Origin: a virus
Taxonomy: Duplodnaviria; Heunggongvirae; Uroviricota; Caudoviricetes
Length of the DNA: 50,015 nt
Virus record (IMG/VR): IMGVR_UViG_2917403263_000001
Strand: one strand, 5' to 3'
Positions within the stretch are counted from its first letter, which is position 1, and each line of letters begins with the position of its first letter. Below the pieces are notes generated by a model that worked only from the letters and a program-made list of their open reading frames with translations, was not told the DNA's origin and did not search any database. Below, piece by piece: positions 29,750 through 35,757 of this stretch. The translations under genes were made by a program, and so were the position numbers.

Positions 29750-29824
<75 letters not shown>

Positions 29825-29827
29825 ATA

Positions 29828-29903
<76 letters not shown>

Positions 29904-31991: not shown

Positions 31992-32231
31992 CTTCAGAAT
32001 CCTTCCAGATAAATAGCTCTCCCCTTTTCAGGGTCCATCCATCTTCTCCCTGCGCGCTACTCAAAACGGATGAATTCTAATTAATCTTTATTTCGAAGCA
32101 ATCGCAAACGATAAAGACAAAAATAAAAACAAATACGACAAATACGACAAATACAATAATATCGAAAATTAACTAACCATTCGGACAACAAGGCAATATA
32201 ATTTCAGCTAAAATTATTAATCCCTTATTCA

Positions 32232-32258
32232 TGAAAAACAAAACCCGCCGAAGCGGGT
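32232..32258 (-). terminator. Intrinsic terminator downstream of the HTH-peptidase gene
   Basis: aacccgc-cgaa-gcgggtt hairpin followed by U-rich run on the minus strand; same hairpin as at 34070-34094. Confidence 0.65.
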
Positions 32259-32263
32259 TATGC

Positions 32264-33385
32264 CTAGTGAATTTTGCCTCTAAGAGTTCGGTAAGATTGT
32301 AGTGAAACAACATCACCACTTCCTGGCAGTTCATGAACCGCAGGAAGATCATCTCCAACTAACTCATAAAAAATGTCCACTTCTATATCCATTTCATCAG
32401 CTATACGCTGTGGGTCGTATCCTAACTCTTCAAATAAAAACGATAAAGCCCGACGGAATAACTCAGGACGCTCATGAGGGATTAGATAATCTTCTTTTTC
32501 ATCAATAGCTTCCCCTTTCCGTTTCAACCCCATAAATGCAGTTCTGTACTGCTCATCAGTCAAAAGTCCTAATTGATGAGCCCTGTAAACAATGGCAGCC
32601 TTACTTACTTTCCATGTCAACTTAAATTGGCTTAGTCCCTGCCAATTTATCCTCCCCCCCACAGGTCTTGGAAAATATTTCGCCATCGACGTTCTGGGAA
32701 GCAACAGAGCAGAGGCAAAACGGTTTGCCTGGGATTCAGTTAATCTATCACCAGTAGAAATTCCTTCATGAAGAATCAAATGGGCAACCTCATGAGCAAT
32801 ATCAAAGCGTTGCCTACAAGGTGAATTTTTAGCTGTATTTCGAACAATAAAAGGCCTTCGTAGAGGAACAGACAGTGCATCTACTTCATCCGAAACGGAG
32901 TCAAATGAAGTAACAAACGCCCCAAGTTTCTCGGCCAGGCGAGTCATATTTTCAATTGGGCCAAAGCCTAAGCCCCACTCAATACGACATTTTTCTGCCG
33001 CTCGCTCGATATCTTCTTGTGTATGGACACGAAATTCAGGAAATCGAACAGGTGACAAATTAAGATTATCTTCAAATACATCAATAAAACGACGATAAAA
33101 CTCAGCCTTAGCGAGTGTTGATAGCTTCGTTGACATCCTTGTCGAGGCGCGTTTACGAAAATGTACAATCTCTTCATTAACAGGAGAATGTTCCTGCCCT
33201 TCGAAAAAGGCGGGCTTCACGCGCAAAACCTCGGCTAATTTATTTATAAGCTCTGGGGATGGAGTAGCTGAACCAGACTCCAGTCGCTGTACATACTGGC
33301 GTGTTTTTTCAACCTTCTCAGCAACCTGCTCCAGAGATAGCTCGTGATACAGACGAGCAAGTCTTAAATTAGTACCGTTAAACAC
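32264..33385 (-). CDS. XRE-family HTH fused to ImmA/IrrE-type zinc metallopeptidase (COG2856-like)
   Basis: N-terminal HTH LSLEQVAEKVEKTRQYVQRLESG; HEXXH motif HEVAHLILHE; 373 aa. Confidence 0.8.
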   Translation of the reverse strand: MFNGTNLRLARLYHELSLEQVAEKVEKTRQYVQRLESGSATPSPELINKLAEVLRVKPAFFEGQEHSPVNEEIVHFRKRASTRMSTKLSTLAKAEFYRRFIDVFEDNLNLSPVRFPEFRVHTQEDIERAAEKCRIEWGLGFGPIENMTRLAEKLGAFVTSFDSVSDEVDALSVPLRRPFIVRNTAKNSPCRQRFDIAHEVAHLILHEGISTGDRLTESQANRFASALLLPRTSMAKYFPRPVGGRINWQGLSQFKLTWKVSKAAIVYRAHQLGLLTDEQYRTAFMGLKRKGEAIDEKEDYLIPHERPELFRRALSFLFEELGYDPQRIADEMDIEVDIFYELVGDDLPAVHELPGSGDVVSLQSYRTLRGKIH

Positions 33386-33395
33386 ATTTCACCCA

Positions 33396-34037
33396 CTATT
33401 TGCTATTTTGTTTCTTTTCCTTCTCAGTCTTAGACGCACTGATAGGTTCTAGTTCGATAGGTACCGGTGCTGGAGGTACATCATCGACAGAGTTCAGCAT
33501 AACAACACGGTCCGCACCATATGTCCAAGTTGACACGATCTCACCAAACACGTTATAGCCATTAAAAATGACTTTACCACCCTCGCCTTCAAATTCAGGC
33601 TTTTCAACCACAAAGCGATGCATAGTTGGAGTGGTCTCCTCTGACTCAAAGAGTCGATCAGCATCGTTTCTTTTGAAAAAACCGCGTTTCTTGGGATTAT
33701 CTGCGTCATCAGTAAAGAAACGAATAGGGACATTCCCAATTGAAAACGTAAGATCCATGCCAGGATTAAGTAGTCTTAACCAGTCATATGTCTTTCGTAC
33801 GCACATTTGTAGCAACGCCTGCCGCTGACGCCCAAATGTACAACCACCACGAGTGTAATTATCATCATAGGGCGATGACAATAACTCATGAGTAATATCC
33901 TGTATCCTGAGCAACTCCTCAGCTATTATGGTTAAACGATCCTCTGTTAACTCAGGAAAGAACTCCCAAGGGAATGGATGGTTCTGCATAGACACATCTC
34001 CGTCTAATCCGTGCAAAAAACGACTTTTGTCAACCAA
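33396..34037 (-). CDS. Hypothetical protein, first gene of the two-gene cassette
   Basis: 213-aa ORF (possible internal start MQNHPFPW); 10-nt gap to the HTH-peptidase gene; AT-rich; no family recognised. Confidence 0.5.
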   Translation of the reverse strand: MVDKSRFLHGLDGDVSMQNHPFPWEFFPELTEDRLTIIAEELLRIQDITHELLSSPYDDNYTRGGCTFGRQRQALLQMCVRKTYDWLRLLNPGMDLTFSIGNVPIRFFTDDADNPKKRGFFKRNDADRLFESEETTPTMHRFVVEKPEFEGEGGKVIFNGYNVFGEIVSTWTYGADRVVMLNSVDDVPPAPVPIELEPISASKTEKEKKQNSK

Positions 34038-34069
34038 GATATTGGTGCATATTCATAATTTTGTCAACC
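34038..34069 (-). promoter_or_regulatory. Candidate promoter of the two-gene cassette
   Basis: Consensus TTGACA -35 hexamer (complement of 34062-34067) immediately downstream of the terminator; -10 assignment uncertain. Confidence 0.35.
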
Positions 34070-34094
34070 AATAAAAAACCCGCCGAAGCGGGTT
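34070..34094 (-). terminator. Intrinsic terminator downstream of hok-like gene / upstream cassette boundary
   Basis: aacccgc-cgaa-gcgggtt hairpin followed by U-run on the minus strand. Confidence 0.65.
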
Positions 34095-34159
34095 AAGCGC
34101 GGGTGCGTTGAGGATGCCTGACACATCAGAGGTGGCGGGGGTTTACCCCGCCTGGTCTC

Positions 34160-34315
34160 TTACTCCTCAGGTTCGTAAGCTGTGAAGACAGCGACCTCCG
34201 TCTGGCCGGTTCGGATTCGTACCTCGCAGAGGTCTTTCCTCGTTACCAGTGCCGTCACTATGACGGTTAAACAGATGACGATCAGGGCGATTAACATCGC
34301 CTTTTGCTGCTTCAT
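34160..34315 (-). CDS. hok: Hok/Gef-family type I toxin
   Basis: 51 aa MKQQKAMLIALIVICLTVIVTALVTRKDLCEVRIRTGQTEVAVFTAYEPEE; SD aaggag; the longer in-frame ORF 34160-34372 may be the mok-like leader. Confidence 0.8.
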   Translation of the reverse strand: MKQQKAMLIALIVICLTVIVTALVTRKDLCEVRIRTGQTEVAVFTAYEPEE

Positions 34316-34582
34316 AGCCTGCTTCTCCTTGACCTTTCGGTCCGTAAGAGGCAATCTATATGTGACGAGCATATAGGGGCCTCACTTCGATTTATAGTCG
34401 GGTGGGGCTTTTCTCTATCTGCCTTTGGTAGCATGCCCGAGGCAGATAGCCTCAAGCACCCGCAGCAATTCTACTTAACTATCTTTTTCCCGCAAATCGT
34501 TTTTATCCCCAGCGGCAAATCGAATACACCATCAGCGCCACCGCCATTGCAATTCCTACCGTTGTGAATGCTTCAGGCCAAC

Positions 34583-35006
34583 TCATTGATTCACCTCCTG
34601 CGGCGGTTCTGGTAGCGGCATCCAGTGGGTTACATTGCGGCTCTGTGTTTCGAAGAACTCCTCACCATTGCGGACAACATCAAAAAACTCACTGTCTCGA
34701 TATTGCGCATAAAGAACGAATGCGCCATCACATAAAATAATTACGTGCTGACCATCATCTGGCATTCGCTCACTACAGCTTATCCAAGCATCCGGAGCTA
34801 CCGGGTAGTTGCCCAATAGCTCGTTCAACTTCACCTTAATCTCCACATTTCTCAGCTTTAGCACTATTGGTAGGTCTGACTTTCCGGTTAATGCTAATGC
34901 GAGATTTTCTGGAGTAATGAGAGCAGTTATTGTTTTCCCCATTGCCAGACGAATAATCATTCGTATCTCTCGATCGTCACATGCTCCCGGTCGAACAATT
35001 GATATT
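34583..35006 (-). CDS. DUF551-like phage protein
   Basis: Start MNGQISIV (SD aaggag); C-terminal WISCSERMPDDG..THWMPLPEPP. Confidence 0.55.
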
Positions 35007-35018
35007 TGTCCATTCATA

Positions 35019-35537
35019 TCAATCTCCTTTTCCATGAAACAGGTGCTCACGACTGGATTTCCAGAATATCCATGCCAGATCAACATTCGGGTCCTGGTAA
35101 TTCATCCCTTCGTTGGCACGAAGCAATAATGTTTCATGGTTTTTATCACCCGCATGAAACCTGACAAGTGCTTCGAACTGTTCGCGACCATCATCTGGCA
35201 TTCGCTCACTACAGCTTATCCAACCATCCGGAGTTACCGAAATTGGCGGCGCGGCATATAGCTTACGGGTCTGAACACCTGCCCCCTGACATTTCTCTTC
35301 CTCAACAAATCCTTCGTAAACGCATTCTCCGCAATCTTCCCATTCTCCCCATTCATCATATTCTGCATCCCACTGGCGATACTGATATGCCACTGGCTCT
35401 GCTTCCAACGATGCCAGCGCAATACGAAACACATTGGCAAGCAGGCTGTTTGAAGATTGGTTATCGTGCGCCGCATCGCTCAGAAAGCCAGTGATGAATG
35501 ATTTAATCTCTGCGCTTTCTCTGGTAATAGTTGCCAT
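35019..35537 (-). CDS. DUF551-domain phage protein (paralog)
   Basis: Start MATITRES; contains DGWISCSERMPDDG; shares a 48-bp near-identical DNA segment (35192-35240) with 34755-34803. Confidence 0.5.
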   Translation of the reverse strand: MATITRESAEIKSFITGFLSDAAHDNQSSNSLLANVFRIALASLEAEPVAYQYRQWDAEYDEWGEWEDCGECVYEGFVEEEKCQGAGVQTRKLYAAPPISVTPDGWISCSERMPDDGREQFEALVRFHAGDKNHETLLLRANEGMNYQDPNVDLAWIFWKSSREHLFHGKGD

Positions 35538-35538
35538 A

Positions 35539-35757
35539 TCAGTTTTCCTTATACGGATTAATTTTATTGTGCAGTGTGTTGAACGAGGCCCATACCACGT
35601 CGTTATACAATTCAATAACTGGCTCAATTATTTTCCCGATTCCCCATACCAGAATTAACGGGGATATCGGTATCATCAACACGATAAACAGAATGAGAAA
35701 CAGGAATTCTGTTGTTCGACTTCTTCGCGGATAATTTTTCCTGAATAGTGTAGGCAT
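35539..35757 (-). CDS. Small membrane protein (72 aa)
   Basis: SD aaggag before ATG; hydrophobic core FLFLILFIVLMIPISPLILVWGIG. Confidence 0.4.
   Translation of the reverse strand: MPTLFRKNYPRRSRTTEFLFLILFIVLMIPISPLILVWGIGKIIEPVIELYNDVVWASFNTLHNKINPYKEN

Follow-up and report, generated by a model that had tools for sequence, protein, structure and literature searches.

RosmerTA is the name given by Millman et al. (2022) to a configuration in which the gene of a toxin, RmrT, lies next to that of an antitoxin, RmrA, which joins a helix-turn-helix (HTH) to a peptidase; in that work the rmrA deletion mutant was untransformable. Protection against phages has been shown for the system of E. coli OLC-716 (Millman et al., 2022) and for that of Gordonia phage Kita, and this evidence concerns only RmrT subtypes other than the one described here. 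Pairs of this kind had been studied genetically under other names. In Vibrio mimicus, the element MGIVmi1 encodes a 198-aa toxin, Vmi480, and, across a gap of 5 bp, a 362-aa antidote with an HTH and a Zn-peptidase, Vmi470 (Luo et al. 2015, PMC4671572). Vmi480 is lethal when expressed alone in E. coli, co-expression of Vmi470 neutralises it, and deletion of the antidote gene by itself is not possible (PMC4671572). In Streptococcus pneumoniae, neutralisation in the RipAB pair is Clp-dependent, the toxin making clpX essential.

The closest described system comes from E. coli E101. There, the prophage-borne toxin E101_02645 (WP_001179380.1) and its antidote E101_02644 (WP_000481765.1) make clpP essential, not only in E101 itself but also in K-12 (Rousset et al., bioRxiv 10.1101/2020.05.25.114553; Nat Microbiol 2021). 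Essentiality is relieved by the toxin substitution T46S or by CRISPRi against the toxin, and three of four clpP-knockdown suppressors had excised the prophage and survived (Rousset et al.). The same authors report 33% and 42% identity of this pair to Vmi480/Vmi470.

We describe a two-gene cassette in a stretch of 50,015 nucleotides from a virus of the Caudoviricetes; this whole stretch is called the window below. The cassette is real, and it is already described as a family: it belongs to RosmerTA. Its RmrA is 100% identical to WP_000481765.1 (also found in E. coli UMNF18), and its RmrT is about 99% identical to a near-identical variant of the E101 toxin, the sibling accession WP_001179381.1, from which it differs by 2 aa substitutions. 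We consider it very likely that rmrT/rmrA is a toxin-antitoxin module of the RosmerTA type which a Rac/lambdoid prophage carries as a moron, and we propose a mechanism with ClpP-dependent restraint of the toxin and abortive infection.

The two genes and their products

The cassette consists of two intact ORFs on the minus strand, running in the same direction: one of 213 aa from a TTG codon (33396-34037) and one of 373 aa from a GTG codon (32264-33385). They are 10 nt apart, and they share one promoter-like region and one terminator. Feature positions are collected in Table 1.

Table 1. Features of the rmrT/rmrA cassette and its borders, in window positions.
Feature	Position	Strand	Remarks
AT-rich spacer	32060..32233		27.6% GC, short tandem repeats; within the insertion relative to phage Rac
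Cassette's own intrinsic terminator	32234..32259	-	hairpin 32242-32259 and T-run
rmrA	32264..33385	-	373-aa antitoxin; PADLOC RmrA model PDLC03943
M78/ImmA/IrrE zinc peptidase (Pfam Peptidase_M78)	32579-32935		RmrA residues 151-269
HEVAH motif	32780-32794		RmrA residues 198-202; intact
XRE-type HTH (Pfam HTH_3)	33203-33367		RmrA residues 7-61
rmrT	33396..33989	-	197-aa toxin; Vmi480 / E101_02645 family; PADLOC RmrT model PDLC03929
Ribosome-binding site of rmrT	33998-34001		GGAG
Box 2	34025..34037	-	TTGGTTGACAAAA again, 34 bp after box 1; overlap with the predicted start of transcription and with the spurious TTG codon
-10-like element	34039-34044		CAATAT, 17 nt after TTGACA
Box 1	34059..34071	-	TTGGTTGACAAAA, a 13-nt direct repeat; TTGACA (-35-like) at 34062-34067
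Terminator hairpin of upstream hok/mok	34077..34094	-	AACCCGCTTCGGCGGGTT and T-run; right insertion boundary, outside the cassette

The toxin most likely starts at the ATG at 33989, giving 197 aa, and not at the TTG. Alignment to the PADLOC profile begins at residue 17 of the 213-aa ORF, PGAP annotates 197 aa in UMNF18, the homologues are all about 197-208 aa long and the TTG codon falls inside a conserved upstream box; for these reasons the shorter form is preferred.

RmrT matches the PADLOC RmrT model from end to end (E 1.3e-92, profile positions 1-197 of 198), and distant members of its family match the same model. PHROG 5786 also covers the whole protein. No family in Pfam or NCBIfam matches it, and RefSeq labels it a hypothetical protein. 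At 90% identity 77 clusters of homologues were counted, and at 50% identity 419 representatives. The motif DDNYT46RG, near-invariant in the family, is intact here, and T46 itself is nearly invariant. The AlphaFold 2 (AF2) model of RmrT has a pLDDT of 81.9. Its resemblance to nuclease-like folds amounts to weak, non-significant hints, and a profile search of PDB sequences with RmrT returned no hit at any E-value up to 10. The combination by which membership of the PD-(D/E)xK nuclease fold was judged, a significant structural match together with a catalytic D...(D/E)xK on core strands, was not found in RmrT.

RmrA carries both domains expected of the antitoxin, and some 100 aa of C-terminal sequence beyond the peptidase. 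The PADLOC RmrA model covers it almost completely (E 4.3e-201, profile positions 1-368 of 370), and 13 further RmrA models match; the RefSeq label is helix-turn-helix domain-containing protein. The PADLOC models capP (E 2.8e-17) and capH (E 5e-10) also match, and they link RmrA to the family of protease/HTH-repressor switches. Against the NCBIfam equivalog model of the spr1629 family repressor/antitoxin (NF052239) it scores 174.3 bits (E 4e-51), below the cut-off of 335 bits; by this score RmrA is related to the spr1629 family and is no equivalog.

The pair has the sequence features by which RosmerTA is recognised: an HTH-M78 RmrA with HEXXH, an RmrT gene adjacent on the same strand, and an RmrT of a catalogued family. 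An earlier note on this DNA had described two co-directional genes 10 nt apart, the second encoding an HTH fused to a HEXXH peptidase, and both the ORF coordinates with their gap and the domain matches bear this out. It had also said that the upstream 213-aa protein belonged to no recognisable family, which is true of Pfam and NCBIfam and not of PADLOC and PHROG. It put the module forward as a candidate for an undescribed one; this part falls, as the curated RosmerTA models match both proteins and Rousset et al. studied essentially the same pair as a toxin-antitoxin system. Two analyses that the note had proposed, a PADLOC run on the locus and structure prediction of the upstream protein, returned the call RmrT + RmrA and the AF2 model described above.

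Borders, putative regulatory signals and distribution of the cassette

Within its Rac/lambdoid prophage the cassette occupies the nin-like region, not the immunity region, and the hok/mok locus directly adjoins it. Relative to phage Rac, positions 32060-34068 are an insertion between hok and rem, and the site in Rac is empty. The AT-rich spacer at the left of this insertion is absent from the match to E. coli UMNF18, in which identity begins at 32234; this position marks the left boundary of the segment common to other E. coli prophages.

The exact 18-mer AACCCGCTTCGGCGGGTT occurs in two copies only in the 50 kb window, one at each border of the cassette (34077-34094 and 32242-32259), and in 0 copies in shuffled sequence. 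Both copies score as terminator-like in a terminator scan. Since the hairpin core is also found 3' of hok in phage Rac, a phage without the cassette, we assign the upstream copy to hok. The CCCGCTTCGGCGGG core also occurs about 20 nt after rmrA in the P2-like loci L008-L010. Of the two hairpins, only the downstream one belongs to the cassette. The pair was also considered as a target-site duplication; the copies have separate origins, one as hok terminator and the other as cassette terminator, and that reading is unproven.

Between the upstream hairpin and rmrT lie two copies of TTGGTTGACAAAA. An alignment shows GTTGACA to be invariant in 5 lineages, and two GTTGACA boxes with equal spacing stand upstream of rmrT in E. 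coli P2-like and Proteus P2-like prophages, in the Aeromonas island and in non-phage loci. It is on this conservation across lineages that we propose box 1 as a putative promoter of the cassette and operator for RmrA, and box 2 as a putative operator for autorepression. A consensus scan for promoters missed the proposed one because of its weak -10 element.

Adjacent rmrT and rmrA genes were found in all 5 independent contexts examined. The pair sits next to a TonB receptor gene in one of these, in an Aeromonas island that also carries genes for helicase, HNH and methylase proteins, and in the P2 gpA-portal hotspot of E. coli and Proteus. The cassette occurs in at least two prophage backbones. 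The toxin gene is present on 27 plasmids, a count that covers the toxin gene alone. In deposited phage genomes, a megablast search with the region matched the hok part only and not the cassette, and tblastn with RmrT against the same genomes returned essentially nothing.

The GC content of the cassette is 42.8%, against 48.1% for the window, which places it at the 10.6th percentile among windows of the same size. The earlier note had pictured an AT-rich, horizontally acquired unit bracketed by near-identical hairpins, with a TTGACA just after the upstream one. The TTGACA is there and the hairpins do share the same exact 18-mer, although one of them is the property of hok; the cassette is indeed poorer in GC than the window, but only modestly so. 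Horizontal acquisition is borne out by the insertion relative to phage Rac and by the presence of the pair in unrelated mobile elements and outside prophages, where the co-occurrence search suggested by the note located it in chromosomal islands and non-phage loci. That the module is a self-contained, horizontally acquired toxin/antidote pair of the kind used in abortive-infection defence is supported.

Proposed mode of action and alternative readings

In the mechanism that we propose, RmrT would be a soluble member of the Vmi480 toxin family, 197 aa in length, and RmrA, translated from the rmrT transcript 10 nt downstream, would be its antidote. In uninfected lysogens RmrT would be kept harmless by RmrA, with a need for host ClpP, and through the two GTTGACA boxes RmrA probably acts as repressor of the operon as well. 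The peptidase may act on RmrT or on the linker of RmrA's own HTH, with ClpXP clearing the products. A superinfecting phage would upset this balance and free RmrT; arrest or death of the cell would then abort the infection and protect sibling lysogens. The PDLC03929 subtype probably defends against phages.

The module might instead only stabilise the prophage, retaining it by post-segregational killing and playing no role against other phages. The neighbouring hok/mok is a classic killer locus, relatives of the cassette are found on plasmids and on a mobilisable genomic island, and published phage defence is limited to other RmrT subtypes. Yet the suppressors of Rousset et al. that lost the prophage and lived are evidence against its loss being strongly lethal. 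Relatives are housed in the P2 gpA-portal variable region and in the Aeromonas island with its helicase, HNH and methylase genes, and the other subtypes do defend against phages; we regard pure addiction as improbable. Rather less probable still is that the pair works as a regulatory switch of the prophage, of the ImmR/ImmA, DdrO/IrrE or CapH/CapP type, in which RmrA would control prophage genes as a damage-activated protease-repressor and the upstream gene would be an accessory factor and no toxin. The HTH and M78 peptidase of RmrA, the capP and capH matches and the conserved operator-like boxes would suit such a switch. The nin-like location would not, nor would the movement of the whole unit among lambdoid prophages, P2-like prophages and chromosomal islands or the presence of its toxin gene on plasmids, and the upstream gene acts genetically as a toxin.

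The earlier note's reading, in which the pair would be a sensor-effector or abortive-infection system not described before and its toxin would fall in no known family, can appeal to the silence of Pfam and NCBIfam and the RefSeq label of the 197-aa protein. It is refuted by the RmrT model and PHROG 5786, which span the toxin, and by the genetics published on the same proteins and on Vmi480, and we give it next to no credence.

With the locus read as RosmerTA, two genes with vague RefSeq names can be called RmrT and RmrA, with the start of the toxin corrected. The prophage here carries a module that makes its host ClpP-dependent and probably excludes other phages. The same cassette moves among lambdoid prophages, P2-like hotspots and chromosomal islands, taking along conserved, putative promoter/operator boxes of its own.

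Comparison with named systems

ImmA/ImmR of ICEBs1, IrrE/DdrO of Deinococcus and CapP/CapH of CBASS combine an M78-type HEXXH peptidase with an XRE HTH, as RmrA does. In those systems the protease and the HTH are separate and the output is transcriptional derepression, whereas RmrA unites the two in one protein, whose partner is a toxin. PD-lambda-2, which defends E. coli against lambda-vir (Vassallo et al. 2022), has an Xre-HTH/peptidase fusion beside a toxin-like gene. It differs in having three genes, the first HigB-like, and in that the peptidase fusion itself is the toxic component.

The OLC-716 RosmerTA (Millman et al. 2022) also has the toxin gene first, and PADLOC RmrA and RmrT models cover both systems. 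The RmrA proteins are 31% identical over 311 aa. The OLC-716 RmrT, the type for which phage defence has been shown, belongs to PDLC03935 in place of PDLC03929, and BLASTP found no similarity between it and the RmrT described here. Two hhalign runs aligned them in the same register with E-values of 0.36 and 0.018 and probabilities of 0.2-2.5%, which are non-significant even with a profile of 97 sequences. The AF2 models of both toxins have the same order of secondary-structure elements, with two helices, three strands, a long loop and three more strands.

The consistent though non-significant profile alignment, the matching order of secondary structure, the weak nuclease hits and two independent cases of Clp dependence in the literature led us to a wider, and rather unlikely, proposal. 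The seemingly unrelated RmrT families would form one ancient superfamily with a common fold distantly like that of restriction endonucleases, and ClpXP dependence would be general, with RmrA cleavage, clearance of the fragments by Clp, and phage interference with this relay as the trigger. In the fold envisaged, two long helices precede a sheet of three strands, and a long conserved loop leads on to another such sheet.

RipAB (Spr1630/Spr1629) is a Rosmer-family toxin-antitoxin system whose antitoxin has the same architecture as RmrA, as the NCBIfam spr1629 match shows. For its toxin RipA, the DnaN sliding clamp has been proposed as the target. An invariant D-x-L-F stands in the long loop of RmrT; a clamp-binding role for it, by analogy with RipA, was dropped, as the canonical spacing is not matched.

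Vmi480/Vmi470 is carried on a mobilisable genomic island, while the cassette described here is in a prophage. The nearest relative is the E. coli E101 pair, whose prophage backbone may differ from that of the prophage here, and which shares with our cassette its gene order, its prophage location, an identical antitoxin and a toxin that is about 99% identical.

RosmerTA assignment and previous studies

Both cassette proteins are matched end to end by the RosmerTA models of PADLOC. RmrT matches PDLC03929 (E 1.3e-92, profile positions 1–197 of 198) and RmrA matches PDLC03943 (E 4.3e-201, positions 1–368 of 370); 13 further RmrA models and the CapP and CapH models also match RmrA. RosmerTA is defined as a zinc-peptidase antitoxin with a toxin of unknown function, and in the verified example from E. 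coli OLC-716 the rmrA deletion mutant was not transformable (Millman et al. 2022). RmrA contains HTH_3 (residues 7–61) and Peptidase_M78 (151–269, HEVAH at 198–202) domains. RmrT belongs to PHROG 5786 and has no family match in Pfam or NCBIfam. The earlier note was right to propose a toxin or abortive-infection module, but the cassette is not undescribed: the very same proteins are already known.

The cassette is present in 23 of 5,426 complete E. coli genomes, at 99.1–99.2% DNA identity. In E. coli UMNF18 its genes are annotated as WP_000481765.1, which is 100% identical to the RmrA of the window, and WP_001179381.1, from which RmrT differs at two residues. In strain E101, WP_000481765.1 is the antidote (E101_02644) and WP_001179380.1 the toxin (E101_02645) of a prophage module that causes clpP to be essential; suppressors carry prophage excision or toxin T46S, CRISPRi against the toxin partially rescues growth, and the module makes clpP essential in K-12 except with T46S (Rousset et al., bioRxiv 10.1101/2020.05.25.114553). 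T46 is intact in the RmrT of the window, within the near-invariant family motif DDNYTRG. A search of the available literature for these accessions found no mention beyond Rousset et al. The Vibrio mimicus pair Vmi480/Vmi470 shows 33% and 42% identity to the E101 pair, according to the same authors. Vmi480 (198 aa) is lethal in E. coli and is neutralised by Vmi470, a 362-aa HTH/zinc-peptidase protein whose gene alone could not be deleted (Luo et al. 2015, PMC4671572).

Start codon, putative promoter and terminators

The cassette consists of two intact, co-directional ORFs 10 nt apart, as first described. The first had been read as a 213-aa protein, which requires a TTG start codon. This TTG falls within a conserved non-coding box, the PADLOC profile alignment begins at residue 17 of the 213-aa reading, PGAP annotates 197 aa in UMNF18, and RmrT homologues are about 197–208 aa long in all 77 clusters. 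Because these four lines agree, we place the start at ATG 33989, which has GGAG 8 nt upstream and gives a product of 197 aa. The AT bias of the cassette is real but modest: its GC content is 42.8%, against 48.1% for the window, at the 10.6th percentile of same-size windows.

Coordinates of the cassette and neighbouring features
Feature	Position	Strand
rmrT (197 aa)	33396-33989	-
ORF of the 213-aa reading	33396-34037	-
rmrA (373 aa)	32264-33385	-
Box 1, TTGGTTGACAAAA	34059-34071	
Box 2, TTGGTTGACAAAA	34025-34037	
TTGACA, directly past upstream hairpin	34062-34067	
Upstream hairpin, AACCCGCTTCGGCGGGTT	34077-34094	
Downstream hairpin, AACCCGCTTCGGCGGGTT	32242-32259	
RmrT loop 93–122	about 33624-33713	
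Stretch in place of 87 bp of phage Rac	32060-34068	
Stretch common to UMNF18	32234-34254	
Repeat segment	32060-32233	
hok/mok	34160-34372	-
DUF551 ORFs	34583-35086; 35019-35627	-
tRNA-Gly(TCC), tRNA-Thr(TGT)	29750-29903	-

The two boxes upstream of rmrT are spaced by 34 bp. In an alignment of five lineages (the window and loci L002, L003, L007 and L011), whose toxins are 40–57% identical, the GTTGACA pair and its spacing are invariant. Box 1 can be read as a -35 element, followed 17–18 nt on by CAATAT, CATCAT or GATAAT. Box 2, at the predicted transcription start, lacks a usable -10. The boxes are likely a promoter -35 element and a putative operator for the RmrA HTH domain, the simplest reading being a sigma-70 promoter with two putative operators that would mediate autorepression. 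No description of the box pair was found in the literature consulted. An Aeromonas homologue has three GTTGACA boxes instead of two.

The exact 18-mer of the two hairpins occurs only there in the 50 kb window, with no matches in shuffled sequence. It forms a GC-rich stem of 7 bp closed by a TTCG loop; a T-run follows, and both copies score as intrinsic-terminator-like. The hairpins do bracket the cassette, but their origins are separate, because the upstream copy is the terminator of hok and the core of the downstream one, CCCGCTTCGGCGGG, recurs about 20 nt past rmrA in P2-like loci.

Genomic context and mobility

The neighbouring genes locate the cassette in a Rac/lambdoid prophage, within its nin-like region; the earlier note had named the nin region. 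Immediately upstream is hok/mok, and farther upstream are DUF551, Ead/Ea22 and DUF977 genes; downstream are rem, DUF1367, YbcO, a Q-like antiterminator (DUF1133) and two tRNAs. Phage Rac (E. coli 442/2) shares this backbone, with hok, rem, irsA/DUF1367, ybcO and Q, but lacks the cassette. UMNF18 shares the cassette stretch only, and its downstream genes differ. From these two comparisons, the mobile unit starts at the boxes upstream of rmrT and ends with the terminator of the cassette.

The hok/mok gene is an intact type I toxin gene (HOK_GEF, E 2.9e-23), so two killer modules lie side by side in the prophage; in UMNF18, the hok copy adjoining this cassette is truncated. The 174 bp that separate the cassette terminator from rem have 27.6% GC, contain short tandem repeats (ACAAATACG x2.9, ATAAAAACAAAA x1.9) and are missing from both phage Rac and UMNF18. 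The two DUF551 ORFs overlap by 68 nt and share the peptide WISCSERMPDDG, which suggests either partial duplication or a mosaic junction within the early region of the prophage. Transfer RNA genes past the Q-like antiterminator, as here, are common in lambdoid and Stx-type prophages.

An exhaustive profile search gave 419 RmrT representatives at 50% identity, of which almost all are stand-alone and about 200 aa long. The toxin gene, counted alone, is on 27 plasmids across Proteobacteria. In every context examined, an HTH_3/Peptidase_M78 gene follows the RmrT homologue (40–57% identity). These contexts were a position beside a TonB-dependent receptor gene, the variable region between gpA and the portal gene in P2-like prophages of E. 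coli and Proteus, and an Aeromonas island (L003–L006). In the last, the homologue sits between WYL/DNA_pol_A and HNH/methyltransferase/1,732-aa helicase clusters, an arrangement that looks like a defence island. The co-occurrence check proposed in the earlier note thus has a positive outcome.

Proposed mechanism and relation to known systems

The evidence best supports a type II-like toxin-antidote module that serves abortive-infection-type exclusion by the prophage. Its unusual trait is that ClpP is required to hold the toxin off (Rousset et al., bioRxiv 10.1101/2020.05.25.114553). This parallels RipAB, a Rosmer system of S. pneumoniae whose toxin makes clpX essential, and whose authors note a negative action of ClpX on the toxin. 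An ImmA/ImmR-like HTH-cleavage step has been suggested for Rosmer systems (Ernits et al.). Given these observations and the CapP/CapH matches, we favour, as an inference, a proteolytic relay, in which the RmrA peptidase would act on either RmrT or its own linker, leaving the products for ClpXP to clear.

The AF2 model of RmrT (41-sequence alignment, pLDDT 81.9, pTM 0.73) comprises two long helices (16–36 and 44–65), three strands (71–92), a long conserved loop (93–122, RFFTDDxxNPKK...RNxxDxLF), three more strands (123–157) and a disordered tail. Most of the invariant residues (D94, D95, P99, K101, D111, L113) fall in this loop between the two sheets, which is modelled at lower confidence (pLDDT 70–79) and may be the active or interaction site. 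The RmrT of Gordonia phage Kita depolarises membranes; the RmrT of the window differs in that its model predicts no helical, candidate transmembrane segment beyond the two long globular-core helices.

The OLC-716 RmrT falls in another PADLOC model (PDLC03935), and BLASTP gave no match between it and the RmrT of the window. With two different profiles, hhalign aligned residues 13–110 with 26–124 of OLC-716 RmrT in the same register, non-significantly (E 0.36 and 0.018, probability at most 2.5%). For a relative of OLC-716 RmrT at 91% identity, the AF2 model (pLDDT 78.8) shows the elements in the order seen in the RmrT of the window: two helices and three strands, then a long loop and three further strands. 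Common ancestry of the two toxins is possible. The alignment of the window's RmrA with RmrA partners of this toxin family extends to residues 345–362 (49–58% identity), whereas that with OLC-716 RmrA stops at about residue 302 (31% identity), a pattern compatible with a C-terminal region specific to the toxin.
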